The notes beneath the pieces are model-generated. The model saw nothing but the letters and a program-made list of their open reading frames with translations. It made no database searches and was not told the DNA's origin. This document shows positions 1 through 33,877 of a DNA stretch of 64,000 bases, one piece after another (the stretch's first letter is position 1; every line of letters begins with the position of its first letter). The stretch lies in contig JAOZSQ010000002.1 of the NCBI GenBank assembly GCA_029939595.1, positions 2,761 through 66,760 of the forward strand, in the 5' to 3' direction. This DNA comes from Thermoplasmatota archaeon (GTDB lineage: Archaea > Thermoplasmatota > E2 > DHVEG-1). A program made the translations under genes and the position numbers.

Positions 1-565
1 GTAGGAATTCCTGAAAACGCTCAGATGGCGAATACTTCATATTATCTTTGATGGATCGAATGATATCTTTACCAAGAAGTGATACATCTCGATATATCCA
101 TGCTGCCTCTTTTTGGACTGCGCCATATATGTTTTGCTTGGATAGACTTTTAAAGATCTCAGTAGGTGTTACTCCTGCAGAAGACATAGCGGAAACAAAA
201 TTTAGGGCATATGATAGATTAGCATCTATCTTTTTTCCTCGTGATTTTGCAATACTATTAGGGATCTGTAATGAAATAACATAAGTTAACCCTCCAACAA
301 TCAAGGGGAGGGCGATGAATAAACTTGTCATAATTAAACCAAGTTGTATTTGAAGAAGTGGAATGAAGATAAAAAGCAAGATAGTTACAATCAATGCAGT
401 TGAGACAATACTTAATAGCATATACAAAAGTGAAGATGCCATATAAGCCTCTTGTTTGATATGTAAATGAGCTGAGCGAAGACTAAACTCTAATGCCTTA
501 CTTGGATGTTTTCGGGTAAACGATCCAAACAATTGATATGCTTTCTTTTCTAAAGTTTTTAACAT
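1..565 (-). CDS. FlaJ/TadC-like polytopic membrane protein (type II secretion system F-domain), N-terminal part; the gene runs off the window start
   Basis: My manual minus-strand translation from the ATG at 565 has no stop down to position 1 (MLKTLEKKAYQLFGSF...LSYALNFVSAMSSAGVTPTEIFKSL...). It contains a hydrophobic TM block and a T2SS-F-like motif. It lies directly downstream of two secretion ATPases on the same strand. It is absent from the ORF track because it is truncated. Confidence 0.55.
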   Translation of the reverse strand, partial: MLKTLEKKAYQLFGSFTRKHPSKALEFSLRSAHLHIKQEAYMASSLLYMLLSIVSTALIVTILLFIFIPLLQIQLGLIMTSLFIALPLIVGGLTYVISLQIPNSIAKSRGKKIDANLSYALNFVSAMSSAGVTPTEIFKSLSKQNIYGAVQKEAAWIYRDVSLLGKDIIRSIKDNMKYSPSERFQEFL

Positions 566-587
566 ATATGTTACACCATACCATATT

Positions 588-2348
588 TTATTTATTTTTT
601 TTTAATCGGATAAAGAAATTTTTTTTTCTAGCATGAGAAGATTTTTTCAGTTTTTTTTCAGATGTGATAACATCATAAAGCGAAAAACTATTCTCATTGA
701 TATGAAATGAAGATTGTATCTCAGATGCTTTTTTAAGAAGTGACTGTTTCGGAGGGGAAGAAATCTTTGCAAGACTCTCAGATGGATTTTCAGTATATCC
801 ACTAACGATTTCCCCTATTTGTTTGAAATCACGGATCATATGTTTATGCATCCATTCCAAGATCTTCTGGCGTTGCTTTAATTCAGAACGCATTTCATCT
901 GTGGAAAGATCACGTAGCTCACGGATAGTTTCAAGAATAAAGCTTTTACCTGTATATTTAAACTCATCAGTTGATGAATCCCATTTAAAAACATGATTTG
1001 TAAGAAACTCATTGGTTTCTGAATCAACGGTAATTACCTCAATTATATCTTTACATCGCCGAACAGTTTTTCCATTAAGTTTCACCATTGACTGGATCAT
1101 AACAATATCAAGAGACTGTAACATATTACGAGGTACATTGATAGGTTTTCCTTCAAGCCGATGAATCAATGACTTCATAGAATCAGCATGGACCGTTGAA
1201 TAGGTGGTATGGCCAGTAGCCATAGCCTGAAACAATACATATGCCTCTTTTCCTCGTATTTCACCGACAAGAATGTATTCAGGTCGTTGACGAAGCGCTG
1301 CTTTCATCAGATCAAATAAATCAATTTCACCAATAAGCCTATCATTAAGAACCTCACCAAACCCTGAACGTGTGATACCGGGGATCCAGTTTGGATGAGG
1401 TAGATTAATCTCACGGGTCTCTTCAATACTTACAATTTTTGATTCTTTGGGTATAAATAAACACATTGCGTTAAGAACACTTGTTTTTCCACTTGCAGTC
1501 CCACCAGAAACCAATGCATTGGAACCATGTTCAACAGCAAGCCAAAGATATGCAAAGATCTCAGGTGACATTGTATGATACTCAATAAGATCAACAGGGG
1601 TGATTGGATCAGATCGAAACTTTCGAATTGTAAATGTAGAACCTTTCGTGGTCACCTCACCACTCAAAGTCATCTGAATACGGGAGCCATCTGGCATCGT
1701 TGCATCAAGCATAGGATTGGAAACTGAGATATGTTTACCACATTTCTGTGCAAGTTTTGTAACAAACTGGGTTAAACGATCATCAGAATCAAACAGAACG
1801 TCTGTCTCAATAGATCCAAAATCACGATGATTAATAAAAAGAGATGACTTTGCACCATCACAGCTGACATCCTCAATATGAGGATCCTTCATCAAAGGAT
1901 CAATTTTATCATAACCTAAAAAGAACCTGTTTAAATAATACAATAATTTTTTTTCAAGAAAATCATCAATAGCAATACCAAACACTTTTACAATACCATT
2001 ATACTGATCAATAAGAAACGATGTTGGATTTTCATCCAGTTCATCAAGACGTACAGTAAATCTAGATATCAGTTCATTACGAATAAACAAAAAGACATTT
2101 TGTTCATCTTTTGAGAGATATGGTTCCAAAACTCGATATGTTCTCTGTAAGGTGTCAAGATTTTTAACAACAGAAATATATGTATAAGGTGGATCAATTG
2201 GATAACAAATCAACTCCTCAACATTTTTTAAAATGATGTCGATCTGTTGATTTGTATGGCATACATTACACTGCACGGAGGCATCATCTGGATCTTTTAG
2301 ATATATGCGTGCATTACATTTTTTACATAATATAGTGTATTCATTCAT
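588..2348 (-). CDS. FlaI/PilB/GspE-family secretion ATPase (archaeal type IV pilus/archaellum assembly ATPase) with an N-terminal C4 zinc-ribbon
   Basis: Walker A is GGTASGKTS and Walker B/Asp-box is KIVSIEETREI. A His-box (TVHADS) and family-typical LRQRPEYILVGEIRG are present. The N-terminus has CKKC..x..CNVC. The gene overlaps its upstream paralog by 8 nt. Confidence 0.8.
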   Translation of the reverse strand: MNEYTILCKKCNARIYLKDPDDASVQCNVCHTNQQIDIILKNVEELICYPIDPPYTYISVVKNLDTLQRTYRVLEPYLSKDEQNVFLFIRNELISRFTVRLDELDENPTSFLIDQYNGIVKVFGIAIDDFLEKKLLYYLNRFFLGYDKIDPLMKDPHIEDVSCDGAKSSLFINHRDFGSIETDVLFDSDDRLTQFVTKLAQKCGKHISVSNPMLDATMPDGSRIQMTLSGEVTTKGSTFTIRKFRSDPITPVDLIEYHTMSPEIFAYLWLAVEHGSNALVSGGTASGKTSVLNAMCLFIPKESKIVSIEETREINLPHPNWIPGITRSGFGEVLNDRLIGEIDLFDLMKAALRQRPEYILVGEIRGKEAYVLFQAMATGHTTYSTVHADSMKSLIHRLEGKPINVPRNMLQSLDIVMIQSMVKLNGKTVRRCKDIIEVITVDSETNEFLTNHVFKWDSSTDEFKYTGKSFILETIRELRDLSTDEMRSELKQRQKILEWMHKHMIRDFKQIGEIVSGYTENPSESLAKISSPPKQSLLKKASEIQSSFHINENSFSLYDVITSEKKLKKSSHARKKNFFIRLKKNK

Positions 2349-4467
2349 GTTGTTTCACAAGAATTTTTTGAGCAACATCCTCGGGTTTTTCAAGATAATT
2401 AGCAGTTACCGATGCGACATCTTCAAACAAATAAACCTTCTCATCAACCATCCAAGATAAGACATCAGCACGACGTTTAAGCTCATCAGTCATCTCTTCA
2501 TGTTTCATATTTGTCTTAACACGGATACGCTCGAGAACAAAACTTTTTCCAGTATACGAATAAGTATCCTTAATGGGATCCCAACGGAAGACCTCATTAG
2601 TTAAAATCTCTTTTGTAGTAGGATCAATATCGATGATTTCAATTATCTGTTTACAACGACGAACTCTCTTATCTTTAACACGTGCAATAGTTTGAATACA
2701 GACAATATCAAGAGATTGCAACATAATACGAGGAATGTTGATTGGTTCACCCTCTAAACGATGAATCAAGGATTTAGCTGAATCAGCATGCACCGTTGAA
2801 TAGGTGGTATGGCCAGTAGCCATAGCCTGAAACAATACATATGCTTCTCTTCCTCGTATTTCACCGACTAGGATGTATTCAGGTCTTTGACGAAGCGCTG
2901 CTTTCATCAAATCAAATAAATCTATTTCACCTGTAAGCTTTCCACCAACAACATCACCAAAACCAGATCGAGAAACACCGGGAATCCAGTTAGGGTGAGG
3001 TAGATTAATCTCACGGGTCTCTTCAATACTTACAATTTTTGATTCACGAGGGATAAATAAACTAATTGCATTAAGAACACTTGTTTTACCACTTGCTGTA
3101 CCGCCTGATATAAGAGCACTTGAACCATGTTGCACAGCAAGCCACAAATACGCCATCATCTCAGATGACATTGTATTAAATTGAATAAGATCAGCAGGAC
3201 TAAACGGCTGCTCCTTGAACTTTCGAATTGTAAATGTAGAACCCTTCGTACTAACCTCTGTACTTAGAGTCATCTGAATACGAGAGCCATCTGGCATTGT
3301 TGCATCAAGCATAGGAGTTGAAATTGAGATATGTTTACCACATTTCTGTGCAAGTTTCATTACAAAGCTAGTCAAAACCTCTTCATCAGGGATAGCTACA
3401 TTACTTTGAATGGAGCCATGGATCCGATGATACAAAAATATAGGGACTCCTGCACCATCGCAACTAACATCTTCAATGTTAATATCCTTCATTAATGGAT
3501 CAAGAATACCAAGATTGAGACAATCCTTTTTCAGATGATAAAAAATTTTCTCTTTGGAACAATTAGATACCAAAAGCGAATAATCAGATATAATCTCATT
3601 AACTTGACGAAGTAGAATTGGTTCCTCGCCCAATTCATTCAGTTCATTAGTATCAGAAGGCATAACCTCAAAAGCCTCTTTGATAAAGGACATATGCTTC
3701 TTTTCTTCATCTGTTAGTACTATTTCAATCAAAAAATATCGTTTTTCCTTAGTCTCCTTATTTTTAAGAATGGAAGAAAAAGCAAAAGGTTCAAGAAGTG
3801 GATAACTATCAAATTCTTCCCATTCATCTATATTTTTAATACCATCTCTTTTATAAATCAATTGTTTTAAATCTTTTAATTCACTATCTGATAATGTAAA
3901 ATTATCGGTGGAAATAATGGTTTCTAATGGTTGAGACTTAACCTGTTTTTTCTTAGAAGAAGACGATGAAAACAAAGATTTTTTCTTTTTAAGCGATTTC
4001 TTTTTTTCTGTTTTTTGTTGAAGTTTATTCTTTTCTAATGGTTTATTAGATGACATATCAACTGTTTTTTGTTCTTCTGGTTTTTCATTGGATTGTTTCT
4101 GATAATCTAATAAAATTTTTTTATTGGAAATTTTGGGTGATTTTTTTGATTTAGATGAAGATAGGCTGCTAAATAATGGTTTTTTCTTTTTTTCTGTTTT
4201 TTGTTGAAGTTTATTCTTTTCTAATGGTTTATTAGATGACATATCAACTGTTTTTTGTTCTTCTGGTTTTTCATTGGATTGTTTCTGATAATCTAACAAA
4301 GTCTTTTTATTGGAAATTTTGGAAGTTTTTTTTAATAGACCAACAGAGCTAAACAAAGATCTTTTTTTAACTTTCTGTGCCGCCCTTTTTCTATTTACAC
4401 TTCCACTCTTCTTATTTAATCTTAACTTTAACTTTGTTTTCCTTTTTTGTTTCTTTTCATGAGTCAA
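2341..4467 (-). CDS. Second FlaI/PilB-family secretion ATPase paralog carrying a ~190-aa N-terminal K/S/Q-rich low-complexity extension
   Basis: The same Walker A (GGTASGKTS), IVSIEETREINLPHPNWIPG and TVHADS motifs are present as in the adjacent gene. The N-terminal 190 aa is lysine/serine-rich and contains an internal duplication. Confidence 0.8.
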   Translation of the reverse strand: MTHEKKQKRKTKLKLRLNKKSGSVNRKRAAQKVKKRSLFSSVGLLKKTSKISNKKTLLDYQKQSNEKPEEQKTVDMSSNKPLEKNKLQQKTEKKKKPLFSSLSSSKSKKSPKISNKKILLDYQKQSNEKPEEQKTVDMSSNKPLEKNKLQQKTEKKKSLKKKKSLFSSSSSKKKQVKSQPLETIISTDNFTLSDSELKDLKQLIYKRDGIKNIDEWEEFDSYPLLEPFAFSSILKNKETKEKRYFLIEIVLTDEEKKHMSFIKEAFEVMPSDTNELNELGEEPILLRQVNEIISDYSLLVSNCSKEKIFYHLKKDCLNLGILDPLMKDINIEDVSCDGAGVPIFLYHRIHGSIQSNVAIPDEEVLTSFVMKLAQKCGKHISISTPMLDATMPDGSRIQMTLSTEVSTKGSTFTIRKFKEQPFSPADLIQFNTMSSEMMAYLWLAVQHGSSALISGGTASGKTSVLNAISLFIPRESKIVSIEETREINLPHPNWIPGVSRSGFGDVVGGKLTGEIDLFDLMKAALRQRPEYILVGEIRGREAYVLFQAMATGHTTYSTVHADSAKSLIHRLEGEPINIPRIMLQSLDIVCIQTIARVKDKRVRRCKQIIEIIDIDPTTKEILTNEVFRWDPIKDTYSYTGKSFVLERIRVKTNMKHEEMTDELKRRADVLSWMVDEKVYLFEDVASVTANYLEKPEDVAQKILVKQHE
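3998..4296. repeat. Two copies of a ~115-bp near-identical direct repeat (period ~185 bp) inside the 5' coding extension of the 2341..4467 ATPase
   Basis: The sequence aagtttattcttttctaatggtttattagatgacatatcaactgttttttgttcttctggtttttcattggattgtttctgataatctaa occurs at about 4021-4110 and again at about 4206-4295. It encodes the duplicated peptide KKILLDYQKQSNEKPEEQKTVDMSSNKPLEKNKLQQKTEKKK. Confidence 0.8.
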
Positions 4468-4731
4468 ATCGATTCACCATCCACATCTCAAAGACCAAAT
4501 ATTTCATACTACTCATGACATACACATATGACAATAGAGAAATCAGTTACAACAATTATGCATTACAAATATAGAACATAACTTGAATTCCTGTGTGCAT
4601 TCCATCCTTTCCAAAAAAATATATAATATATCAATTTAAATATCTTTCCTATTTAGTTATTTAAAACATAGTCAAAATTCAAGCATAACTTATTTAATTG
4701 TGATTTAGTTGTCAGAAAAAAAACATAATTT

Positions 4732-4805
4732 GGGCCTATGAGGTAGCTTGGATATCCTACTGGCCTTCGGAGCCAGTTACTGGGGTTCGAATCCCCATAG
4801 GTCCG
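4732..4805 (+). tRNA. tRNA-Arg, anticodon TCG
   Basis: A cloverleaf can be drawn by hand. The 7-bp acceptor is GGGCCTA/TAGGTCC with one G-U pair. The anticodon stem is CTGGC/GCCAG with loop CTTCGGA, giving anticodon TCG. The T arm is TGGGG-TTCGAAT-CCCCA and the discriminator is G. CCA is not encoded. Confidence 0.8.
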
Positions 4806-4952
4806 TAACTATTTATTTCCGTTGGCAATCGATTTGAACAAAAAATTTTTCATTTGTAAATCACATTTATAATCTTGAAGCATCTTTTAAGAAATTAATA
4901 CGGGTTAGAAATGGTGACTATTCTTTGTTTATACCTTGTAATTACTGAATAA

Positions 4953-5651
4953 TTATTTTGCAATCATTGCACGTAACCAATCTGTAACATTTTCTGCATG
5001 ATCTGCAATATCATCAACCATTTCAAGGATTTTAAGCAGATGATAAGTATCCATTGGTTCTAATTTACTTTCCATTTTATAAATTGCTTTTGTAACATCA
5101 TATTTTATCTTATCTGTTTCTTGCTCTAATCTTTGTACTTCGTAGATATATTGTTTAGTCTGATCTCTTTCTCTTTTTATAAAACTAGTTTCAATAAGAT
5201 CCATGATATTACCTACTGCTTTCTCCATTGCATCTACTGTTTTTAATGTGCTATTAGCATGATCAATGAAACCTTTTTGAAGTGTTTTTGGAATTTTTGT
5301 ATGTCTCATGTCAAGCATGCGGACAAGACCATCTGCATGGTCTAAAATTGAATCTTGCTCTCGCAAGGTTCGCAAAAATTTTCCTTTGTCAACTGGCATA
5401 AATAAAGAATTTGGTAAATGGTTTCTTAAATTACTTTTAATAATATCTCCTTCATGTTCATATTCTGATATTTTTTTTGATATAGTTGAAAATCCTTTAT
5501 AGTCACCTTGATAATATTTTATCAATCCACTTTCAAGTGCATCAATTCCTTTTTTTACTACTTTCATATGTTCAAATAGCTGGGTAAAAGGAGTTTTTCT
5601 CCTAAATGTATCTGCTAGTGGAACACGAAAATGATCTTGTTCTTTTTCCAT
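4953..5651 (-). CDS. DUF47/PhoU-like phosphate transport regulator-related protein (TIGR00153 family)
   Basis: The 232-aa protein is helical with PhoU-like composition. It sits 16 bp downstream of a PiT permease on the same strand, which is the usual pairing. Confidence 0.65.
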   Translation of the reverse strand: MEKEQDHFRVPLADTFRRKTPFTQLFEHMKVVKKGIDALESGLIKYYQGDYKGFSTISKKISEYEHEGDIIKSNLRNHLPNSLFMPVDKGKFLRTLREQDSILDHADGLVRMLDMRHTKIPKTLQKGFIDHANSTLKTVDAMEKAVGNIMDLIETSFIKRERDQTKQYIYEVQRLEQETDKIKYDVTKAIYKMESKLEPMDTYHLLKILEMVDDIADHAENVTDWLRAMIAK

Positions 5652-5667
5652 TTTTTTCTCTCCATAT

Positions 5668-6909
5668 TTAAAATATCATGTTTAAAGCTAAAAATATTAC
5701 TATTGAGGTTCCAGCAGCAATTGGTAGTGTTAATAACCATGAGGCAACAATTTTTTTGATAATGCCTAGATCTATTGCTTCTAGACCTCTTGCAAGTCCA
5801 ACTCCAATAACTGCTCCTACAACAGTATGTGATGTGGATATTGGTAAACCAAGTTTTGATGCTACAAGAACAGTTGTTGCAGCACCAAAATCAACTGAGA
5901 ATCCACGAGTATTTGTAAGACTTGTTATCCTGCTTCCCACTGTTTTCATCACTCTTTTTCCCCAGGTCATACATCCAATTCCAATTCCAATTCCTCCAAG
6001 GGTTAAAAGCCAGATTGGAACTTCAACTTGAGATCCAATTGAGAGTCCTTGTGCAAGGGGAATGATTGATGCAACAGGTCCAATTGCATTTGCTACATCA
6101 TTAGCACCATGTGCAAATGCTACATAACATGAGGTTCCTACCTGTAATTTTCTAAAGATTTTCTCAACAGTATCGTAATCCTCAGGTCCTCTTTCAGGTA
6201 TTTTTCTTAAAAGAATAATTCCAATGAGTGCAACAATTAGAGCTGCAAGGACTGCATAAAGTAAACCTGCTGATTCTGAAATGCCGTAGTTTTCACCAAA
6301 TGCAGTTTTAACAAATAATGACGATACAATAAGAAGAGCTGTAAAACCAAAAATGATTGGACCTACTATTTTTGCTGCTTTCACAGGGTTATCTTTTGAA
6401 AAAATTGTTATTGTAATGATTTTGAAGACTAAAAAAGCTAGTATGCAACCACTTAAAGGAGAAAGAATCCAACTTGCTACTACAGATCCAACTTTTCCCC
6501 ATATGACTGTTTGAACACCACCGGCGATAAGACCAAATCCAATTAAAGCACCAATTATAGAATGTGTTGTTGAGATGGGCATTTCCTTCCATGTTGACAG
6601 TGTTACCCAAAAAGCAGCAGCCAGAAGACTTGCGATAAATCCAATTAGTAAAATATGATTGCTGATACCTGCGGATTGTACATCTACAATTCCTTTTCTT
6701 ACGGTATCAGTAACATGACCACCGACAAAAACTGCACCCACTAGATTTAATACACCTGCAATTAGAACAGCTTGTTTAAAGGTGATTGCTTTTGCACCAA
6801 CTGCTGTTGCCATGGAGTTAGCTACATCATTAGATCCGATACTCCATGCCATGTAAAAAGCAATCGCAGCTGAACCACCAATGATGAGCATTAACGAATA
6901 ATCTACCAA
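5668..6909 (-). CDS. Inorganic phosphate transporter, PiT (PHO4) family
   Basis: The duplicated signature GSNDVANSMATAVG / GANDVANAIGP is present. The protein is a polytopic membrane protein of 413 aa. Confidence 0.85.
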   Translation of the reverse strand: MVDYSLMLIIGGSAAIAFYMAWSIGSNDVANSMATAVGAKAITFKQAVLIAGVLNLVGAVFVGGHVTDTVRKGIVDVQSAGISNHILLIGFIASLLAAAFWVTLSTWKEMPISTTHSIIGALIGFGLIAGGVQTVIWGKVGSVVASWILSPLSGCILAFLVFKIITITIFSKDNPVKAAKIVGPIIFGFTALLIVSSLFVKTAFGENYGISESAGLLYAVLAALIVALIGIILLRKIPERGPEDYDTVEKIFRKLQVGTSCYVAFAHGANDVANAIGPVASIIPLAQGLSIGSQVEVPIWLLTLGGIGIGIGCMTWGKRVMKTVGSRITSLTNTRGFSVDFGAATTVLVASKLGLPISTSHTVVGAVIGVGLARGLEAIDLGIIKKIVASWLLTLPIAAGTSIVIFLALNMIF

Positions 6910-7214
6910 GGTTTTCCTCCAAAGTCAATCCTTAGCATTGGTAAACAAAGAACAATATTTAAAATTATCACACATATAAACAAAATAATTTTTGTGATTC
7001 ACATGTATAAACGAAGTTGTATTGCATGCTTGAAAAATGACAAAATGACACAAAAGATTTAAATAAGTTAAATGTGAAAGTATAACAGCGAGGATCCTGG
7101 GAAAAAACCTTTTTTCCTTCCATCTTCACTATCCTACCAGGCTCCTCCCATCTCTCTCTAAACTTTTATCATCTAATGAAAATTATTAGTAGAAAAAAGA
7201 ATGGAAAAGAGATA

Positions 7215-7589
7215 TTAAGAATATGTTCCACGTAATTTTCTTCGATCAATCTTAACATCACTAGGTGAAACAATCATTAAATTATTTCCAATACCTGCAA
7301 TATCGCCATTAATTTCCTTAACTATTTCTTTTAAATCATTTGTCACTCTTTTCAATATGACTTCTTCTTCGGCTATTTGTGAAAAATCTAATAGAAGAAC
7401 ATTTCCTCCATAGACATAATCTGTGAAGTTTTTTAGATCCTCATAGCGTTGAATTTCACCGACTCTAACATGCATCTTTGCAGGAACATTTTGACTTGTG
7501 CTTTCCATATATTTTTCCAAATCAATGTAACCACCTACATCGCCAGGACGTTTCTCACCGAAAATTTTGTTAACAAATCCCATATTCAA
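7215..7589 (-). CDS. sepF: SepF-like cell-division protein (DUF552)
   Basis: The protein is 124 aa. The C-terminal core LLLDFSQIAEEE...NGDIAGIGNNLMIVSPSDVKI matches the SepF fold signature. Size is typical of archaeal SepF. Confidence 0.55.
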   Translation of the reverse strand: MNMGFVNKIFGEKRPGDVGGYIDLEKYMESTSQNVPAKMHVRVGEIQRYEDLKNFTDYVYGGNVLLLDFSQIAEEEVILKRVTNDLKEIVKEINGDIAGIGNNLMIVSPSDVKIDRRKLRGTYS

Positions 7590-7691
7590 CTCACACTCCA
7601 GAATAAATCCAGATATATGAATACATGATGTACCTTATAAACGTTTTTCTTAGATATTACTCTGAAAAATAAAAATATAAAAAAAGTATAA

Positions 7692-8045
7692 TTAATCGAC
7701 AATCGTAAAATCCTTTGCAAATCCATAAACATATGATATCATACCAAAAGGACCTGGTGTATAAGTCAAGAAAAATGGTGTTTTTGTTAAAGAAATCTCT
7801 GTAAGACCTCTAACAATCCCTGCTTTTTTAATAAGTAAACCTGATTGAAAATAAAAAAGATAGAGGGCATTTGCTGTGAGAGTATCATTTGTTTCATGAG
7901 GATTTATAATAGTACCAATAATAAGTGTGCTATCAAAAATACCTGACTGTGAAATGGGGGCCTCATCAGTTGATTCTGATTGTACAATAACTGTTGAGAG
8001 AAATACAAGCATACACACTATTCCAAATGAAATTTCTTTTCTCAT
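7692..8045 (-). CDS. Small secreted hypothetical protein
   Basis: N-terminal signal peptide (MRKEISFGIVCMLVFLSTVIV). No recognisable domain. Confidence 0.4.
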   Translation of the reverse strand: MRKEISFGIVCMLVFLSTVIVQSESTDEAPISQSGIFDSTLIIGTIINPHETNDTLTANALYLFYFQSGLLIKKAGIVRGLTEISLTKTPFFLTYTPGPFGMISYVYGFAKDFTIVD

Positions 8046-8123
8046 GAGATATTCCTCAAATATAATATATTAATTATAATATCATAGATTATAAATGTTT
8101 TCATGTGGTTCAATGGATATTGA

Positions 8124-8645
8124 TTAAATTAATGATATCATATTCCAAAGAGGGTCTCCAATATAATGAACCATGAACACTGCTTTCCCCTTAGAACTAG
8201 TTATCATCTCTGACCCCTCCATCACAGCAATCCCAACGGCAAGAGCTTTCTTATGTGTCTCATCACATATCCAAACTACATCATCAACAGAGATATTTTT
8301 ATCTGCATCAACAATGCCTGGAGCCATTACATCAGCACCATTTGTAACAAATTTAACGGCACCCATATCAACAGTTACAAAACGATTAGATGGGTTAAAA
8401 TGCATCAGCCCCTTTATTGTATAAAAAAGTTGATTATCTTTTCTAAAAAAACAAGGAACGCCATCAAGGAAAATAAGCTCAAAATCATCGATTACACCTG
8501 TTTCAGCTGAACTGAAAGATGATTCTATGTTTATATTTAGATTTCTATAAATCTCATTGAAAAGCTTTTGTATATCTTTATTTTTCAAACGATGTTTATT
8601 TTTGATTTTAACCATATTGCTCTTCAAACAAATGTTATAAAACAT
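8124..8645 (-). CDS. PUA-domain RNA-binding protein (Tma20/MCT-1-like archaeal family)
   Basis: The 173-aa protein has C-terminal PUA-like motifs GADVMAPGIV and AVGIAVMEG. Confidence 0.45.
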   Translation of the reverse strand: MFYNICLKSNMVKIKNKHRLKNKDIQKLFNEIYRNLNINIESSFSSAETGVIDDFELIFLDGVPCFFRKDNQLFYTIKGLMHFNPSNRFVTVDMGAVKFVTNGADVMAPGIVDADKNISVDDVVWICDETHKKALAVGIAVMEGSEMITSSKGKAVFMVHYIGDPLWNMISLI

Positions 8646-8730
8646 CAGGTTCTTAATGATTTACAATAAATGATACGTTTCATGATGAATCATCTCATTG
8701 ATTAATTTAAAAAAAAACGAACCCAAAACC

Positions 8731-8738
8731 CTTATAAA
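8731..8738 (+). promoter_or_regulatory. Candidate TATA box (cttataaa) for the Sm-rpl37e operon
   Basis: A TATA-like octamer lies about 38 bp upstream of ATG 8773, consistent with an archaeal promoter and a short leader. This rests on sequence pattern only. Confidence 0.3.
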
Positions 8739-8772
8739 CAAAAGACTTATTCGCACTCAGAAGTGAAGTATC

Positions 8773-8991
8773 ATGGAAAAACCCTTAAAGATTTTACATG
8801 GATCATTAAACAACCGAGTTATTGTTGAACTACGATCTGGACGTTCATACAATGGAACACTTGATGGATATGATGTTCCTCATATGAATCTAGTACTAAA
8901 AAATGCAGAAGAAATACTCAGAGGAGAATCAAAAGGGAAACATAATACCATTATTCTTCGAGGGGACAATATTATATATGTCTCACCTTAA
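8773..8991 (+). CDS. Sm-like archaeal protein (SmAP/LSm)
   Basis: The 72-aa protein has Sm1/Sm2 motifs (VIVELRSGRSYNGTLDGYDVPHMNLVLKNAEE...IILRGDNIIYVSP). Confidence 0.8.
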   Translation: MEKPLKILHGSLNNRVIVELRSGRSYNGTLDGYDVPHMNLVLKNAEEILRGESKGKHNTIILRGDNIIYVSP

Positions 8992-9030
8992 TACGGATAA
9001 AAAATATTACAATTAGGAGTAACGTGATCT

Positions 9031-9192
9031 ATGTCAAAGGGAACCCCATCAAGCTCTGGAAATAAAAAAACACATACTGCCTGCAGACGATGTGGAAAAA
9101 AATCATTTCACATGCAAAAACGCGCCTGTGCATCATGTGGATTTGGAAACACCGCAAAAATTCGAAAATACAACTGGTCAAAACAACATTAG
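9031..9192 (+). CDS. rpl37e: 50S ribosomal protein L37e (53 aa; not in the ORF track because it is under 60 aa)
   Basis: Translation [53 protein letters not shown] is the L37e C4 zinc-ribbon signature (THTxCRRCG...CxxCG...YNWS). It lies 40 bp after the Sm gene. A T-rich tract follows the stop. Confidence 0.8.
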
Positions 9193-9258
9193 TTTTATTT
9201 TCCATTTATTAAATGAACATATTGAATTAATTGGAAACATACTTATTTTTTATACATT

Positions 9259-10617
9259 TTAGGTTAAAAAGACATTGTTATTCATTTTAAACAATGAATT
9301 ATGGTAATTTATAACATTTTGTGAGGAATCCATTGAAACTCCTCCTTCTTTAAATAATGAATATAGTAGAGCTTGTACTGCAATATTTCCAATTGTTGAC
9401 ATTGATGTATAAGCAGGGTTTCCATTTGCAAAATAAATCAAACCAATATCTTCTGATGGCATATAGAGCATCCATGTATCAACACCCATGATATCTCCTC
9501 CATGGCCCATTGCAGTTTGAGTTTTACTAATGGGATACCCCATCCATGCAAGACCATATCTAAGTGCATTATCGTCTTGGAGATCATGCATCAGGTCAAC
9601 TGTCTCTTTTTCTAGGATACGAGTGTTTTGGTAAACACCATCATTCATATGGGCAATTAGAAAATGAGAAAGATCATTAATTGTTGTATACAGACCGCCT
9701 GCGGGGTAACATCGAATTTTCCAGTGTGACTGTGGAGGGAATAAATCTCCATAAAGAAATGAGAGCTCATTAATCTGATAATATTTACCATAAACCGACA
9801 GGTAGGGAATTGCAACGTTTTCAATGTCTAATGTTGAAAGATTAAAGCTAGTGTTATGCATGTTTAATGGATCAAAAATATATTCTTGGCAATATGGCAA
9901 GAATTTTTCTCCCGAAATTATTTCTGTTAGATATGATATCAGATCAAAACCAACATTAGCATACATTGCCTGCTCTCCCGGTTTATAGATATTGCTCCAT
10001 ACATCTTCATGGTAATATTTACCACCAGGAACCAAGAATTCCTCAAGGAATGGTTCAGGGAAATAATCAAAAGGTGGATCCTCTGAATTATTCATCCAAT
10101 AATACACATCTCTTGTATTCATATTAAGACTTGAAGTATGAGATAGAAGCATACGAAATGATATAGGATCATCAGGGAAATGAGGGTTTCGAAGATCAAA
10201 AGGTAAATAATTATTTACATCCTCCCCTAGATCAAATAAACCTTTTTCATATTGTTGCATTAAGGCAGTTCCAACAATTGTTTTTGTAATCGATGCAATT
10301 AGATAAATCGTATCAGGCGTGGGTTCTTTTTTCTCTGAAAGATCATAAAAACCATATCCCTTAGACCAAACAATCTCATTATCATTAATGATACATGCTG
10401 AAATAGATGGAAACCTTGCAAGCTTCATAAAAAAAGAGATTTTTTGATCAAAAAGAGCATTATTTAAGCTTATTTTTAAGTCAGTAGTTTTTGTGTTAAA
10501 AATATCTTTTGTTTCTTCTATATTATCTGCATTTGATAAAGGAGAAAGAATGCTTATGTTACAAAAAATAAAAAGGATGGAAAAAACAAAAATTTTTTTC
10601 ATTAATCTTTTATCCAT
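9259..10617 (-). CDS. Secreted beta-lactamase-fold serine hydrolase (PBP/class C beta-lactamase/D-aminopeptidase-like)
   Basis: Signal peptide present. The SxxK motif (ASITKT) sits at the expected position. Size is 452 aa. Confidence 0.6.
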   Translation of the reverse strand: MDKRLMKKIFVFSILFIFCNISILSPLSNADNIEETKDIFNTKTTDLKISLNNALFDQKISFFMKLARFPSISACIINDNEIVWSKGYGFYDLSEKKEPTPDTIYLIASITKTIVGTALMQQYEKGLFDLGEDVNNYLPFDLRNPHFPDDPISFRMLLSHTSSLNMNTRDVYYWMNNSEDPPFDYFPEPFLEEFLVPGGKYYHEDVWSNIYKPGEQAMYANVGFDLISYLTEIISGEKFLPYCQEYIFDPLNMHNTSFNLSTLDIENVAIPYLSVYGKYYQINELSFLYGDLFPPQSHWKIRCYPAGGLYTTINDLSHFLIAHMNDGVYQNTRILEKETVDLMHDLQDDNALRYGLAWMGYPISKTQTAMGHGGDIMGVDTWMLYMPSEDIGLIYFANGNPAYTSMSTIGNIAVQALLYSLFKEGGVSMDSSQNVINYHNSLFKMNNNVFLT

Positions 10618-27742: not shown

Positions 27743-28351
27743 TTACATCTCAACAATTTTCACATGTGCAATAGCCCATCCAGCGTTATGAGGGACCATC
27801 CATTGCATTTTTAATAATTGATTTTCCCTATCAATTTTATAAAGACCTGTTAATTTTGTTTCAGATCCATCTTCTTTTATTATCTTTCCATTAAAATATC
27901 CTTTTTTCATTATACCAACAAGTTGTTGTTTTTCATCATCACCTGTTTTATTGAAGAGTCCTTTGAAAACGCCAACTCGTATACCATTTTGGGTTGTTCT
28001 GAGTGTGATTCTTCCACCCCAATATCCATTAAATTCTCTATCGGTCCCATTACCCCATTTACCTCGGATCCTTAGATATTTTTTCAAACATTTATCCGAA
28101 TCAGTAAACTCTGGAAGATCTGTTGTTTCATCTTCAGATATATATTCTTCATCATCAACAGACGAAATCTCTTCATCATATGCCTCTAAAAGTTCAGCAT
28201 CAATGTCTGCAAAAGGTGAAACATCAACATACTCGAGGTATTCTCCATTTTCCACGGTTTGGTTATTCAATACGTCTTCTGCAAGTACCAGCGTTGGGAT
28301 GAGTGCAGCAATAACTACAACCACCATTCCTATTGTGTAGATTTTTTTCAT
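27743..28351 (-). CDS. Secreted hypothetical protein with an acidic linker
   Basis: Signal peptide present. A D/E-rich region is followed by a Gly/Lys-rich beta-like domain. Confidence 0.4.
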   Translation of the reverse strand: MKKIYTIGMVVVVIAALIPTLVLAEDVLNNQTVENGEYLEYVDVSPFADIDAELLEAYDEEISSVDDEEYISEDETTDLPEFTDSDKCLKKYLRIRGKWGNGTDREFNGYWGGRITLRTTQNGIRVGVFKGLFNKTGDDEKQQLVGIMKKGYFNGKIIKEDGSETKLTGLYKIDRENQLLKMQWMVPHNAGWAIAHVKIVEM

Positions 28352-28458
28352 GTTCTATCACTTCATCCCTCCTTTTTGTCATTTTTTTTATATATGCATT
28401 TACCAAAATTTATACCAAAAGAGGCCAAAATGATACCCAAATTCAACCTAAATCATGC

Positions 28459-28950
28459 TTATTCGTTACTTAGATGAAAGAGGATAACAAGGGCAATGGT
28501 TTCAAAAAAATTAGCAATGATGGAAAATATTGCTGATTGATATGTTAATAAAATATTATATATTCCTAGCCTGGGCCCAATGGACATAATTGAGATTAAT
28601 ATATTAAGAATTGGAAGACTTAAAAGTGATTGAATAAAAAGGACAAGGAGAAACACGATTAAACCCAGAAGAAATGGGGACTGTGTGTTTTTGAAATCCT
28701 TTTTATAACTCCATAGCAATCCAGCAATAAGACTTAGATTAATACTAATAAAAATTGTTTCAAAAATAAAATTTGTTGAAAAACCATGCCAAATGTCCTG
28801 ATACTGATCAATACCTCCAATGCGCCTATGGAGGATACTCAGGCTACCAAATGAGAGGATGAGGCCAACAATAACTCCAATGACAAGAAAAACAAAGAGC
28901 ATCATGATTGTTTTTGTTTTAGGATCATATTTTTCCATTATTTTACCCAT
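28459..28950 (-). CDS. Small 4-TM membrane protein, hypothetical
   Basis: Four hydrophobic helices. It lies 23 bp downstream of a wHTH gene on the same strand. Confidence 0.4.
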   Translation of the reverse strand: MGKIMEKYDPKTKTIMMLFVFLVIGVIVGLILSFGSLSILHRRIGGIDQYQDIWHGFSTNFIFETIFISINLSLIAGLLWSYKKDFKNTQSPFLLGLIVFLLVLFIQSLLSLPILNILISIMSIGPRLGIYNILLTYQSAIFSIIANFFETIALVILFHLSNE

Positions 28951-28973
28951 TGTATATTACTCTCCTATTTCTA

Positions 28974-29279
28974 CTACTTCTTTTTTTTCCCAATTTTTCC
29001 CCAAATCTCATGAAAAAATTCCTCATTTTTTTCTAATAAATCAGATGGAAAATACATTATGCCATACCCTGAACCAGTGTGGGTGATAAGATTATTTTTT
29101 TCCAGAACTTGAATATGATGTCGAACTGTTTTATAATCAAGATTAACTTTTTTTGAAAGTTCATTGGCATTATATGGCTGTGCCCATAGGACTTCAAGAA
29201 TTCTCCCACGGTTAAACCCACCAGAAGAACCACTGAGTAACCACCAGAGAAGTCGTTTTACACCGTGCATGCCATACAA
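28974..29279 (-). CDS. Small winged-HTH transcriptional regulator (ArsR/PadR-like)
   Basis: RILEVLWAQPYNANELSKKVNLDYKTVRHHIQVLEKNNLI is a canonical wHTH recognition region. Confidence 0.5.
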   Translation of the reverse strand: MYGMHGVKRLLWWLLSGSSGGFNRGRILEVLWAQPYNANELSKKVNLDYKTVRHHIQVLEKNNLITHTGSGYGIMYFPSDLLEKNEEFFHEIWGKIGKKKK

Positions 29280-29407
29280 CCTTTAAATATAGAAAATAGC
29301 AATATGTTATAAATCATTTGTTTTTTTAAAATAACAAGTTCGGCATAAGTCGTAAAATACCATCTAAAATAATATAAATACCTTCATTTCTTAAAAAATA
29401 AGGTGAT

Positions 29408-31015
29408 TTGGAAGAAATGAAAAAAATGATATTTGTCAATTTAGTATCTCTAATTATTATCACTTTAATATTAATACAACCTGTATCCTCAAACATATCT
29501 TGTTCACAGAACGAAATAATCATTGTGGATAATGAAGGAGATGGTGATTATCAAACCATACAACAAGCAATAGATAATGCAAATTCGGGCGATATAATCC
29601 AAATATATAGTGGAATTTACAATGAGAAACTAATCATTCAAAAAGAAAGAATCACACTTAAAGGAATTGATCATGAATTGGGAGCTGGAACTGATACTGA
29701 ATATCCAATCATCAATGGAGATCAGATTGGAAATGTTATCGAAATATATGGAAAACATTGTCAAATAACATCATGTATCATCCAAAATAGTGGACATGGT
29801 ATTTTTGATGCAGGAATTTTCATTCTTTCAAATGAAGTAATAATATCTGCAAATGGAATTGTTAGTAATCAGTATGGTATTCTTGTAAATAATTGTACTG
29901 AAAACATTATAGAAAATAATTACATTCTTTCAAACACTATGGATGGGATATACCTTCTTTTCACAGAAGAAAACATCATTTCAAATAATATCATTAGGGA
30001 AAATGGTTTCCAAGGAATGTTTATGTATGAGGCAAATAAAAATACCATAACTGAAAACACTTTTTCACTGAATGGTAAAGATGGTATTCATCTAAGGAAT
30101 ACCTGTATGAACAATGAAATAACAAAAAACATAATTCATTCAAATAGTATCGATGGAATAAAAATAATGGATTCAAATGTTTATTATAATAATTTAAACA
30201 ATAATGAAATTTATTCAAATGGCTGGAATGGGGTTCATATTGTCAATGGACAATCAAATATCATATCCGATAATATGATTTATTTAAACTTATTAAATGG
30301 AATTCAAATTGGAAACGCAGATAACAATAGAATCATACGAAATACCATCCAAGACAATAAAGAAGAAGGCATTGTCTTTTTGTTCTCAGGATCTCAAAAT
30401 AATCAAATATACTATAATAATATAATTAATGATAATGCATTTGATGGTGGAAAAAACATATGGGATGATGGAAGAGATGCCGGGGGAAACTACTGGTCAT
30501 ATTACAAGGGGTTAGATGTGGATGGAGATGGCATTGGCGATACACCTTATATTATTGAGGGAATGGGAAATATGGATAATACACCATTCATTGACCCTTT
30601 ATATCCGCCTCAAACTCCAAGTCAACCAAGAGGGCCTACAATTGGAGTACCCGGAACAAGTTACACATATAGAACAACTTCATCAGATAATCTGCACAAT
30701 AAGATACAATATGGGTGGGATTGGAATGGAGATGATGTTGTGGATGAATGGACTTTTTTTTATTCACCTGAAGAACCATGTGAAACATCTTATATTTGGA
30801 ATCAAAATGGAACATATCAAATAAAAGTGAAAGCAATGGATGATCAGGGTTTTCAAAGTGATTGGTCACAACCATTATCAATTACGATGCCAAAAGATCC
30901 AAAAAACAAAATAGACATTATAGGAAATTTCATATTCAACTTTTGTCAACAGATTCTATATCGTATTTATGCTATAATTGTGGCTGACCAACAACCAAAT
31001 ATTGCAAAATACTAG
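29408..31015 (+). CDS. Secreted parallel beta-helix (NosD/CASH-like) protein ending in a PKD-like domain and an aromatic amphipathic C-terminal tail
   Basis: Signal peptide present. PbH1 repeats are present. The CASH C-terminal motif is DVDGDGIGDTPY. The PKD-like block is WDWNGDDVVDEW...NGTYQIKVKAMDDQGFQSDWS. The tail is PKDPKNKIDIIGNFIFNFCQQILYRIYAIIV. Confidence 0.65.
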   Translation: MEEMKKMIFVNLVSLIIITLILIQPVSSNISCSQNEIIIVDNEGDGDYQTIQQAIDNANSGDIIQIYSGIYNEKLIIQKERITLKGIDHELGAGTDTEYPIINGDQIGNVIEIYGKHCQITSCIIQNSGHGIFDAGIFILSNEVIISANGIVSNQYGILVNNCTENIIENNYILSNTMDGIYLLFTEENIISNNIIRENGFQGMFMYEANKNTITENTFSLNGKDGIHLRNTCMNNEITKNIIHSNSIDGIKIMDSNVYYNNLNNNEIYSNGWNGVHIVNGQSNIISDNMIYLNLLNGIQIGNADNNRIIRNTIQDNKEEGIVFLFSGSQNNQIYYNNIINDNAFDGGKNIWDDGRDAGGNYWSYYKGLDVDGDGIGDTPYIIEGMGNMDNTPFIDPLYPPQTPSQPRGPTIGVPGTSYTYRTTSSDNLHNKIQYGWDWNGDDVVDEWTFFYSPEEPCETSYIWNQNGTYQIKVKAMDDQGFQSDWSQPLSITMPKDPKNKIDIIGNFIFNFCQQILYRIYAIIVADQQPNIAKY

Positions 31016-31151
31016 TAATCAAAAAGACATTTGTTCAATGAAAATCCCGGATTTCTATGCAAGGAATACTGTTTTAAGCACTCTGCGATCTAGAATTGGA
31101 ATTATTAGTCAGCCTCAATTTTATATGCATTATAATAGAATATGTCTGAAT

Positions 31152-32189
31152 TCAATTTCTAAATGAAAAGATATTTCCAAAGATATTACTTATGGACCTT
31201 TCTATGATTAATTTAACAATATTGTTAAAAAACCGATTTAAAGCATACTTAGTAACATTTGACATAAAATCTGAGAATTTGCTTTCATGTATATGAATTG
31301 TAATTGTTTCAATATCCGAATTTCCATCTTCATCAGTTACGTTAAGTGATACTTGATAGATTCCAGGAATCCAGAATATGTGGGAGGGATTCTGTTCAGT
31401 ACTTTCCTTGTTTTTTGGAAGAAATCCATCATCAAAAAACCAATGATATGAATGATTACCATTATCGCTATCTAAACAATCACCATAGAAGTTTATTTTC
31501 TTTGGTGCTTTTCCGCTGATACTACTAGATGTTAGAATGGCATGAGGAATGTATTTTTCAATAACATTGATCTCAATGGATGTTGTTACTTCAATTCTAT
31601 TATCAAATGAAACAGTTAGCCAAACATAATATGATCCTGTTTCATTAAACCAGTGTATTGGATTTTGGATGTCTGATGTTGAACCATCTCCAAAATCCCA
31701 GTGGTATGAAGAGATCTTACGTTCAAGATCATATGCATTTCCTGAAAAATTAATCAATAATGGAGATTTTCCAACGGTTTTATTAGTAGTTATTGATGCA
31801 ATAGGTTTCTGATAATTTACAACATCGATTTCAATAGTATCGCTTGATTTTGCTCCTGCATTGTCCCATACCGTAATTGTTGCAAAAAAGGTTCCTTGTT
31901 TAGAATATGTATGTCTAATCATTTCTTTATCTGATTCCGAACCATCTCCAAAATCCCATAGAACTTTTTTTATATCTCCATCTTGATCATTATGAAAGCA
32001 AGAAAATGAAATAATTAATGGTGCAGTTCCATATGAAACATCTGCTTGTGCTTCTACAACAGGAATAATATTTTCTTTGAATGATTGACCAATAGTAATG
32101 CTTAGTGCGGATGTTATAATAATGATGCAAACAAATAATGCTAATGTTTTATTTTCCATATGCCCTCGCCATTGAATCTTGATAATCAA
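31152..32189 (-). CDS. Secreted protein with three PKD domains and a C-terminal amphipathic tail
   Basis: Three WDFGDGS/WHWDFGDGSTS PKD cores are present. The tail is KFSDFMSNVTKYALNRFFNNIVKLIIERSISNIFGNIFSF. Confidence 0.65.
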   Translation of the reverse strand: MIIKIQWRGHMENKTLALFVCIIIITSALSITIGQSFKENIIPVVEAQADVSYGTAPLIISFSCFHNDQDGDIKKVLWDFGDGSESDKEMIRHTYSKQGTFFATITVWDNAGAKSSDTIEIDVVNYQKPIASITTNKTVGKSPLLINFSGNAYDLERKISSYHWDFGDGSTSDIQNPIHWFNETGSYYVWLTVSFDNRIEVTTSIEINVIEKYIPHAILTSSSISGKAPKKINFYGDCLDSDNGNHSYHWFFDDGFLPKNKESTEQNPSHIFWIPGIYQVSLNVTDEDGNSDIETITIHIHESKFSDFMSNVTKYALNRFFNNIVKLIIERSISNIFGNIFSFRN

Positions 32190-32386
32190 AATATAATAAT
32201 ATCATATAAATATTTTGAATATATTAAAAACAAATTAAAAATAATAAAATCTTTTGGAGGTTAAAATTTTATTCAAAATTAACTTATAATACAATTGATT
32301 TCTTCAAGATTATTTACATTATTAACAAATAAATATGGAAAAGTTTATATTGATAATCTCATAATAACTAATATTGTTGTGAAAAA

Positions 32387-33088
32387 ATGAAAAAAACAAT
32401 ACTAATTGGTCTAAGTTTATCTTTATTTGCAATTCTTCTAATACCATCTGTTCCTGCAGTAGAATTATCCTTGGTTAAAGATGAACAAATAAAGACAATT
32501 ACTGAACAATTTTCAATAATTAGTCAAATCAGTGATTTTCATGAAAACGATCTTTTAGATAAACAAACAACAGATACTTTCAATTTATATTTTGAAGAAA
32601 TAATCAATAATTTTGAAAAAAAAATATTTGAATCTGATGCTGACGTTGGAAATGATGAGGGCGGTGAACCACGATTTTTCCCGTTTCTAGGGATTTTTAT
32701 TTATCTAGCGATTGCTTATGTTCTTCTTGCCATTAGTGTAATTGTCCTAAGGTTCATTGGAGGCGGAATTAGAGGCATCTTTCAAGGGATTAAATTAAAA
32801 ATTCTACAGTTCATAGGTTCTATTATTTCTATTGTAAGTTTTATTATAACTCTTGCTTTAAATATTGTAAAAGGTGCATTATCAACAGGCCTTAAAGTTG
32901 GAACATTTATTCTTGATGTTATTCTACTTATCTTTACTGGTATTTTTACAGTATTACTAATATTAATTCAAGGTATTGGAAATATTATTGCAGATATATG
33001 GAATGGAATTGGAACAATACTACAATTTATTTTGGAGATTATTAGTGTAATCATTGAGACAATATTTCCCAACATAGGTGTTAATTAA
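32387..33088 (+). CDS. Hypothetical membrane protein: signal peptide, soluble acidic domain and Gly/Ile-rich TM helices
   Basis: Hydropathy pattern only. Repeated I..GIG.I motifs occur in the C-terminal half. Confidence 0.35.
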   Translation: MKKTILIGLSLSLFAILLIPSVPAVELSLVKDEQIKTITEQFSIISQISDFHENDLLDKQTTDTFNLYFEEIINNFEKKIFESDADVGNDEGGEPRFFPFLGIFIYLAIAYVLLAISVIVLRFIGGGIRGIFQGIKLKILQFIGSIISIVSFIITLALNIVKGALSTGLKVGTFILDVILLIFTGIFTVLLILIQGIGNIIADIWNGIGTILQFILEIISVIIETIFPNIGVN

Positions 33089-33128
33089 CAATAAGAAATA
33101 TTAAATGGCTTTCATTGAAATAAAATAT

Positions 33129-33809
33129 TTATTTTTTCTCAGTTGATTTCTTCTTTTTTAGATATGGGACATTTGTTCTCTTATTATAACTGATTTCATA
33201 CTGTTTAGGCTTAGTACAAGGAGTTCCTTTTTCCGAAGATCCCTTACTAAAATAATATAATGTTTGCATTGTATCATTGCGCATCTTTATCTGTTGTTTA
33301 TTAAGAATATAGTCACCAATCTGTAAGAACTCAGGTTCTAAATCTTCTATTTCATCCTTTGATGTTTCTAATGGTATAAAAATAGATATGACATGTGACA
33401 TTAATAGATACATAAGTGCGACTAATGATGCAGTAAATAAGAGATAATAAATTAAAATATTTTCTTGATAATATAAAACCGAGGAAAGATTATAAATTAA
33501 TGAAAATGTGAAGAATCCAACTATAGTATAGTATGAACCGCGCTTTTGATTCAAGAACCCATATGGAATAATTCCTAGAATAATAAAATTTAAGATAAGT
33601 TCAAGACTAAATAGAATCGAAAAAAATGATATTGAAGTTAATTCTTCAATTTGTCCATTGACAAAACCAAAGAAGAAAACATGGAATAATAGGTTTATAA
33701 AACTCAACAATAATAATAGAATCATTGGTCCTAAGATACTTTTTGAACTTGATGATAATGTTTCTTTTACCATAAAACCACCCATATAATGGTAAATAGA
33801 TTTAACCAT
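33129..33809 (-). CDS. Hypothetical polytopic membrane protein with a basic C-terminal tail
   Basis: Five or six hydrophobic helices. No catalytic signature recognised. Confidence 0.35.
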   Translation of the reverse strand: MVKSIYHYMGGFMVKETLSSSSKSILGPMILLLLLSFINLLFHVFFFGFVNGQIEELTSISFFSILFSLELILNFIILGIIPYGFLNQKRGSYYTIVGFFTFSLIYNLSSVLYYQENILIYYLLFTASLVALMYLLMSHVISIFIPLETSKDEIEDLEPEFLQIGDYILNKQQIKMRNDTMQTLYYFSKGSSEKGTPCTKPKQYEISYNKRTNVPYLKKKKSTEKK

Positions 33810-33877
33810 AAAAACCTTCCTTTCAATAACATAAAAATTAATGAATTTAAAACCAGAGATAAAAAATGAAAGTACGA

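Follow-up and report, generated by a model that had tools for sequence, protein, structure and literature searches.

In Cuniculiplasma divulgatum, the CdiP pilus machinery comprises two ATPases, CdiPE1 and CdiPE2, and a platform divided between CdiPFa and CdiPFb (ISME J 2025, PMC12448462). In the passages of that article that deal with the ATPases and the operon, this arrangement is called unique among archaea, and the second ATPase is described as enigmatic, its need being left open. Exchange of sequence between these ATPases is not analysed in the same passages; no search of the article aimed at conversion or recombination was made. The present work concerns a similar gene pair, encoding ATPase A and ATPase B, at the beginning of a 64,000-nucleotide stretch of DNA from a Thermoplasmatota archaeon (GenBank assembly GCA_029939595.1, contig JAOZSQ010000002.1, positions 2,761 to 66,760 of the forward strand), referred to here as the window. 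These two genes, predicted to encode type IV pilus assembly ATPases, share near-identical DNA tracts within otherwise diverged sequences, which very probably reflects recurrent gene conversion that is limited to certain segments of an ancient tandem pair. The likeness to CdiP is one of gene arrangement: both loci are from the same phylum and combine, within a single operon, two ATPase genes with a platform that is encoded by two genes. They differ in that pilin-like genes directly follow in the operon here, whereas the pilins of C. divulgatum are reported to be encoded about 500 kb away (PMC12448462).

A locus with two distinct ATPases was also mentioned in passing for Aciduliprofundum boonei by Makarova, Koonin and Albers (2016; PMC4858521), who noted two tadC genes in many loci of euryarchaeal clade 2. 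The present locus is similar to these clade 2 loci (PilB3/PilB4-type), to which the A. boonei locus belongs and in which the gene for a VirB11/T2SSE-family ATPase lies beside TadC-like genes, often two, and genes for pilins that possess class III signal peptides. In contrast to what is described below, neither a tandem pair conserved across Thermoplasmatota nor concerted evolution was reported in that census.

Long-lasting, recurrent concerted evolution of prokaryotic paralogues, such as tuf, mtrA, mtmB/C and others, was documented by Wang and Chen (2018; PMC6053082). Most of these genes encode subunits of complexes. Archaea contribute seven genes to the list, every one of them from a methanogen and none of them for a pilus ATPase. 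As in those cases, the paralogues studied here appear to have been homogenized repeatedly by gene conversion over long periods. There, however, entire genes are affected, whereas here only two gene segments are homogenized and the remainder evolves as in ordinary orthologues.

Archibald and Roger reportedly described in 2002 a recurrent and partial gene conversion, biased to conserved regions, between the paralogous subunits of the archaeal chaperonin (thermosome). The parallel is that archaeal paralogues for subunits of ring-forming ATPases are concerned in both cases; the thermosome subunits belong to another protein family, their genes are usually not adjacent, and the hetero-oligomeric ring that is established for them is hypothetical here. 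In bacteria, PilB and PilT are the extension and retraction ATPases of one pilus; they are paralogous hexameric secretion-type ATPases that diverged anciently and have distinct architectures. Sequence exchange between PilB and PilT is not known to have been reported, and nothing at the present locus points to a role in retraction.

A full-text literature search that combined gene conversion with archaeal paralogues of type IV pilus ATPases retrieved nothing relevant. The gene arrangement is thus already known, as is conversion between paralogues as a phenomenon, but the present case, with its conserved and domain-resolved pattern, does not appear to have been reported before.

Near-identical tracts in two diverged ATPase genes

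The minus strand of window positions 1-4467 carries three genes, namely the 5' part of a T2SSF gene, ATPase A and ATPase B. According to the open reading frame (ORF) listing, ATPase A (588-2348, minus strand, 586 amino acids) is the downstream and ATPase B (2341-4467, minus strand, 708 amino acids counted from a TTG start) the upstream member of the tandem. All coordinates given below are window positions and residue numbers refer to ATPase A, unless stated otherwise. From residue 110 to 529, the two genes align without insertions or deletions at a fixed offset of 1600 nt, and three near-identical DNA tracts are shared at this constant +1600 nt register. Tract 1 (1180-1333 in A, 2780-2933 in B, both on the minus strand) extends from Walker B to the His box, at approximately residues 339-390, and is identical at 144 of 154 positions (93.5%); where the amino acids agree, 40 of 48 codons are the same. 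Tract 2 (1381-1496 in A, 2981-3096 in B, minus strand), from Walker A to the Asp box at approximately residues 285-323, shows 104/116 identical positions (89.7%) and includes an exact block of 50/50 nt (1396-1445 = 2996-3045). Tract 3 (1618-1757 in A, 3218-3357 in B, minus strand) covers the end of the N-terminal domain, residues 198-244 (KLAQKCGKHIS...TFTIRKF), with 126/140 identical positions (90%) and 33/40 identical codons where the amino acids agree.

Two diverged islands interrupt these tracts. The island between tracts 1 and 2 (1334-1380, minus strand, partner in B 2934-2980; residues 324-339) is identical at 33/47 positions (70%) and reads ITRSGFGEVLNDRLIG in A as opposed to VSRSGFGDVVGGKLTG in B, a difference that is paralogue-specific in the window, in the related contig L062 and in an 89%-identical relative termed sp2, whose A and B genes lie on separate contigs (L064 and L065) from separate samples. 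The island between tract 3 and Walker A (1497-1617, minus strand, partner in B 3097-3217; residues 245-284) has 82/121 identical positions (68%) and carries paralogue-specific residues that are kept in the orthologues, SDPITPVDLIEY being A-type and EQPFSPADLIQF B-type. In the flanks outside the tracts, A and B share 56-57% of their DNA sequence.

Near-identical tracts amid diverged genes had been noticed in an earlier note made from the sequence alone, and both tracts quoted there were found. Its first pair of intervals, 1182-1330 and 2783-2930 at about 95% identity, is essentially right, the second interval being off by 1 nt (1182-1329 = 2782-2929, 140/148 or 94.6%); its 47-bp identical block (1399-1445/2999-3045) exists and is in fact 50 nt long; and tract 3 is missing from it. 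The N-terminal domains, which it regarded as unrelated, are so only in residues 1-39 of A, with a CxxC...CxxC stretch, and in residues 1-209 of B, which are Lys/Ser-rich and contain a repeat, whereas from A40/B210 onward they align at about 35% amino acid identity.

Excess of synonymous identity in the core

Synonymous similarity was measured as the number of identical codons at positions where the amino acid is shared by A and B. In the core, defined as residues 191-392, 119 of 159 such codons are identical, compared with 73.8 expected from the codon usage of the window (binomial p = 3e-13). The flanks are at the codon-usage expectation (27/51 with 26.8 expected, and 28/64 with 31.5 expected), and their synonymous sites are saturated. 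Controls were provided by L062 and L063, related contigs with orthologous pairs and the same G+C content at third codon positions (GC3, 0.21-0.27). At the same positions, with a GC3 of 0.25-0.27, codon identity amounts to 0.51 between A of the window and A of L062, 0.45 between the corresponding B genes and 0.43 between A of the window and B of L062, as opposed to 0.75 between A and B of the window; McNemar tests of the within-window pair against the cross-genome controls gave p values from 1.6e-5 to 7e-11.

An all-interval scan statistic located the excess at residues 198-389, with a codon identity of 0.77 inside and 0.47 outside this interval (permutation p <= 0.001). For the L063 pair, the same scan delimited residues 300-389 (0.90 versus 0.44, p <= 0.001), and a GENECONV-like test was significant as well (p = 0.0002). 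In the scan of the orthologue and cross-genome control pairs, no significant interval was detected. The earlier note had named two outcomes that would speak against exchange, uniform divergence along the genes and unremarkable synonymous sites in the tracts. Neither was observed: the segment map gives 89.7-93.5% identity in the tracts versus 56-57% in the flanks, in agreement with the scan, and it is the tract-bearing core, not the flanks, that exceeds the codon-usage expectation.

Two further comparisons were negative. The GC3 of the converted zones is only 0.023 above that of the rest, and single-copy outgroups differ similarly, for which reason GC-biased gene conversion was rejected. The two T2SSF paralogues encoded downstream show no sign of conversion, being 22-25% identical with codon identity at baseline (20/44 and 18/46).

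An ancient tandem pair with recurrent homogenization

Close relatives were obtained by exact-protein look-ups. Contig scans of genomes and metagenomes with protein A returned few close relatives, the best named genome having 59% identity, and homologue searches with A and B yielded many contigs on which each of the two types is represented by one protein. As determined by tblastn searches of the retrieved loci, the gene order B-type, then A-type is present in 15 Thermoplasmatota loci, whereas relatives from Methanosarcinales, Methanomicrobia and Haloferax have a single ATPase gene. The arrangement with two ATPases, called unusual in the earlier note, is not unique to this genome: it occurs in the 15 loci as well as in C. 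divulgatum (PMC12448462) and A. boonei (PMC4858521). A comparison of orthologous loci, which the note had suggested, shows that the B-then-A pair is conserved across Thermoplasmatota and forms two separate orthologue groups: diagnostic residues and a distance tree of the proteins set the upstream B-type apart from the downstream A-type across genomes, and orthologues from different tandem-pair loci are only about 55-80% identical. Because the two types form separate orthologue groups across genomes, the duplication predates these lineages and is ancient rather than recent.

Recurrence was assessed using a codon alignment of 12 complete pairs (24 genes) from different projects. Codon identity in the core is 0.61-0.81 within the pair in all 12 loci, compared with 0.39-0.52 for cross-genome paralogues and 0.41-0.53 for orthologues. 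The gene's own tandem partner is its nearest neighbour at the DNA level in 14 of the 24 genes over residues 198-244 and in 22 of 24 over residues 285-392, and in none of the 24 over residues 40-190, 245-284 or 393-530. A thirteenth pair, from the closed 1.82-Mb Thermoplasmatales genome CP070712.1 (L068), has a codon identity of 0.79 in residues 285-392 versus 0.42-0.53 upstream, so that the same segmental pattern is found in 13 independent loci. Walker A, Asp box, Walker B and His box are intact in both ATPases of the window and in the 13 loci. Both paralogues of one contig (L001_1 and L001_2 of L001), and no other sequence of the set, contain the Walker A variant GGTAAGKT instead of GGTASGKT, which is a lineage-specific amino acid change common to the two copies of one genome. 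Homogenization thus touches synonymous as well as nonsynonymous sites and has been repeated in independent lineages. In tract 1, A and B of the window are 94.1% identical, whereas the A genes of the window and sp2 are 88.9% identical, which indicates that some of the conversion took place later than the split from this 89%-identical relative.

A hybrid ATPase gene in a related contig

The contig L061 (sample ERZ27227317) is 99.5% identical to the window upstream and has the same gene order (LSM, PUA, SepF, PHO4, PhoU-like). Instead of the pair, it has a single gene (L061 positions 5257-7362) for a 701-amino-acid B/A hybrid ATPase, which resembles B as far as the 50-nt exact block and A from there on, with one clean switch. 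A few A-like sites are nevertheless present in its B half. The junction lies at about 6505-6554 of L061, corresponding to 1396-1445 and 2996-3045 in the window, so that the block in tract 2 of B is the site of the B-to-A switch. L061 represents either a natural deletion allele that lost 1600 nt by unequal crossover or an assembly collapse.

Origin of the homogenized segments

The features that characterize conversion between paralogues were all found here: in the segment concerned the partner is closer than the orthologue, synonymous identity is in excess, the tracts are clustered, and the flanks are orthologous and saturated. Recurrent, segment-limited gene conversion between ancient tandem pilus ATPases is accordingly considered very probable. 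Several results weigh against this explanation or limit it. For the window pair alone, the longest run of identical codons (p = 0.054), a 30-codon window scan (p = 0.17) and a GENECONV-like permutation limited to columns that are invariant in six sequences (p = 0.056) did not reach significance. A four-taxon site count in the core gave 12 genome-type and 5 cross-type sites, which is not significant and too small for dating events, and the sp2 genes used in it come from separate contigs and samples. In the flanks of the group II loci, within-pair codon identity is somewhat raised (0.55-0.74), which may be due in part to their very low GC3. Finally, the divergence of the tracts amounts to 6-10% except in the 50-nt exact block, which means that conversion need not be ongoing. 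The comparison with expectation, the cross-genome controls and the all-interval scan were taken as the decisive tests. The earlier note had proposed either ongoing gene conversion or a very recent partial duplication. Of these, gene conversion between the two paralogues is retained and extended to 13 loci, without the qualifier ongoing, and recent duplication is abandoned.

It might be argued that no exchange occurred and that the tracts are simply the most constrained codons, those of the Walker, Asp and His boxes, given the AT-richness of the genome and its strong codon preference. The tracts do coincide with the catalytic motifs, the baseline of codon identity is already about 0.45-0.5, and the simple run tests are marginal. 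Orthologues and cross-genome paralogues, however, have the same amino acids and GC3 and reach only 0.43-0.51, in contrast to the 0.75 within the genome; the surplus over the 73.8 codons expected to be identical and the 22 of 24 genes with the partner as nearest neighbour over residues 285-392 point in the same direction, and constraint by itself is consequently very unlikely to account for the tracts. Just as unlikely is a very recent partial duplication, or a one-off replacement of the core in this lineage alone. The high tract identity and the constant 1600-nt offset, free of insertions and deletions between residues 110 and 529, would be expected from such an event, but it is at odds with the saturated synonymous sites of the flanks, with the conservation of the tandem and of A/B orthology in 13 loci, between which orthologues share only about 55-80% identity, with the diverged islands of paralogue-specific residues that interrupt the tracts, and with the independent homogenization of the same segment in each lineage.

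The possibility that a metagenome assembly blended the reads of both paralogues into a false consensus is regarded as the least probable of all. The source of the window is probably metagenome-assembled, and the repeats at this locus do trouble assemblers, as evidenced by the loss of one unit of the tandem repeat described below in L061, other differences in the number of its copies and a gap of N in L066; L061 itself may be a collapse. Nevertheless, both genes are reproduced in three assemblies from other samples (L066 and L067 at 99.9%, L026 at 98% identity), the same pattern is seen in the closed genome CP070712.1 and twelve other loci from different projects, and blended reads would not yield clean paralogue-specific islands.

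If gene conversion is indeed the cause, its course may be pictured as follows. The starting state is an ancient tandem pair of T2SSE ATPases in a Thermoplasmatota pilus operon, between which non-reciprocal homologous recombination would have taken place repeatedly, as between direct repeats 1600 nt apart, either within one chromosome or between chromosome copies. Exchange would begin where purifying selection on the catalytic core holds the copies similar enough to pair, and would succeed in two zones, the end of the N domain and the stretch from Walker A through the His box. It would be lost or purged where paralogue-specific residues matter, namely in the N domain, in residues 245-284, in residues 324-339 in this lineage and in the C-terminal part, selection thereby setting the borders of the tracts. 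The outcome would be a stable mosaic of homogenized catalytic segments within otherwise diverged genes. A crossover instead of a conversion in the 50-nt block would remove 1600 nt and join B to A, the configuration that is seen in L061.

A type IV pilus operon with two ATPases

Both ATPases match the Pfam family T2SSE (E = 1.8e-37 for A and 1.8e-35 for B), with domain scores of 129 and 123 bits compared with a Pfam cut-off of 24.9 bits. Their scores with the NCBIfam FlaI equivalog, 426 and 420 bits, are both below the 550-bit cut-off, and the closest solved structure is that of the Archaeoglobus GspE-type ATPase afGspE (2OAP, E = 4e-131), followed at a distance by FlaI (4II7, E = 5e-80). The operon can be traced past the window edge in L066 and L067, two independent assemblies with 99.9% identity to the window. 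In both, the pair is followed by two platform genes of 291 and 295 amino acids, each with one T2SSF domain, by a Pilin_N gene of 143 amino acids, the product of which begins with MKRRKFHGSQGVSEIVGTMLLLGISISLF and has a class III signal peptide, and by further pilin-like, CLIPPER, PKD and NosD genes. The operon order is B, A, two split platform genes and pilins. Pfam annotation of the called downstream genes in L066 and L067 revealed no archaellum-family domain; one 290-amino-acid protein was without any Pfam hit.

The two genes are therefore predicted to be type IV pilus assembly ATPases of the T2SSE/archaeal PilB-GspE type, and the two T2SSF genes and the class III pilin, together with the lack of annotated archaellum-family Pfam domains downstream, identify the locus by its gene content as the machinery of a type IV pilus, with a divided platform and two ATPases, and not as an archaellum. 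An identity as the archaellum motor ATPase FlaI/ArlI was ruled out by the NCBIfam scores, the far better match to 2OAP and the absence of archaellum-family domains among the annotated downstream genes. From the FlaI/PilB-type assignment in the earlier note, with its archaellum-or-pilus context, the pilus T2SSE part consequently remains and the FlaI part does not. The pilin genes that the note had proposed to look for beyond the window are present, as Pilin_N genes, in L066 and L067. The single FlaJ/TadC-like gene that it placed after the two ATPases, by contrast, is an effect of the window edge, which cuts the operon: the T2SSF gene 1 (TadC/PilC-like, half of the split platform) is represented by its 5' part at 1-565 on the minus strand, and its remainder lies past the edge. 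No T2SSF or pilin genes come after the ATPase pair in L068 (positions 5890-9722); the platform and pilins of that genome must therefore be encoded elsewhere.

Features of the genes and of the surrounding window

A motif search placed Walker A at residues 282-290, the Asp box at 302-314, Walker B at 356-366 and the His box at 377-389 of ATPase A, and the same four motifs from Walker A at 455-463 to the His box at 550-562 of ATPase B (B numbering). Ahead of its catalytic motifs, ATPase A has the CxxC...CxxC stretch at residues 8-30 (window 2259-2327), a zinc-ribbon-like pair CKKC...CNVC that is retained by the orthologous A-type proteins from L062 and L063 and that B-type proteins do not have. 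A 100% identical copy of the A protein is present in two further assemblies. The stop of B and the start of A overlap by 8 nt (2341-2348, minus strand, ATGAATGA as read from the sequence), a type of arrangement that is usually associated with translational coupling; the overlap has the same length in L062 and amounts to 1 nt in L063. GGTGA is located 6 nt (ATCGAT) 5' of the TTG start of ATPase B.

The Lys/Ser-rich N-terminal extension of B (B residues 1-209) has counterparts in the B orthologues, which likewise begin with a Lys-rich extension. Its gene segment contains a tandem repeat (3997-4333, minus strand) with a 186-nt unit in 1.8 copies that are 96% identical. One unit fewer is present in L061 and L067, and L066 has a 100-N scaffold gap at this site; the copy number is either variable or misassembled. 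Among relatives (P0016/P0133, P0036, P0049 and P0059), the N-terminal extensions of the ATPases are very variable, some being Lys-rich and others having helix-hairpin-helix domains, and the proteins range from 570 to 1100 amino acids in length; in some contigs the A-like and not the B-like gene is the long form.

A tRNA-Arg(TCG) gene (4731-4806, plus strand), which separates the PhoU-like gene from the beginning of the ATPase operon, was the sole Rfam match in the 64-kb window. Since the Rfam scan gave only this one tRNA, no RNA element accounts for the conserved DNA of the tracts. About 200 nt around the 5' end of SepF (7052-7250) are missing from the otherwise 99.9%-identical L067, and the SepF ORF measures 124 amino acids in the window, 152 in L067 and 122 in L061. 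The cumulative GC skew declines steadily until about 30 kb and increases from there on (turn at about 28000-34000), which could reflect a switch in gene orientation or a replication landmark, and the GC content dips to 0.27-0.29 near 32-38 kb.

Implications

Among uncultured Thermoplasmatota, the combination of two ATPases with a divided platform is common, and the catalytic cores of its ATPases appear to have been copied repeatedly onto each other while the other domains remained distinct. As both enzymes retain every catalytic motif and their cores are homogenized, neither copy is a decaying duplicate, and specialization is to be sought outside the ATP-binding core. Trees based on the conserved core are expected to group these paralogues by genome, which is a warning for the phylogenetics of type IV pilus ATPases. 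With this locus, the few prokaryotic examples of long-lasting concerted evolution are joined by an archaeal, non-methanogen one that is limited to segments.

As to a functional reason, it is conceivable, though rather unlikely, that segmental homogenization is kept because the two ATPases form one hetero-hexameric motor, or serve as interchangeable motors, and need matched catalytic cores, while the N-terminal domain, residues 245-284 and the C-terminal region would specialize for distinct partners, such as the two halves of the divided platform. If this were true, it would provide a first functional clue to the second pilus ATPase of Thermoplasmatota and would represent a rare example of domain-resolved concerted evolution maintained through a phylum-level radiation.

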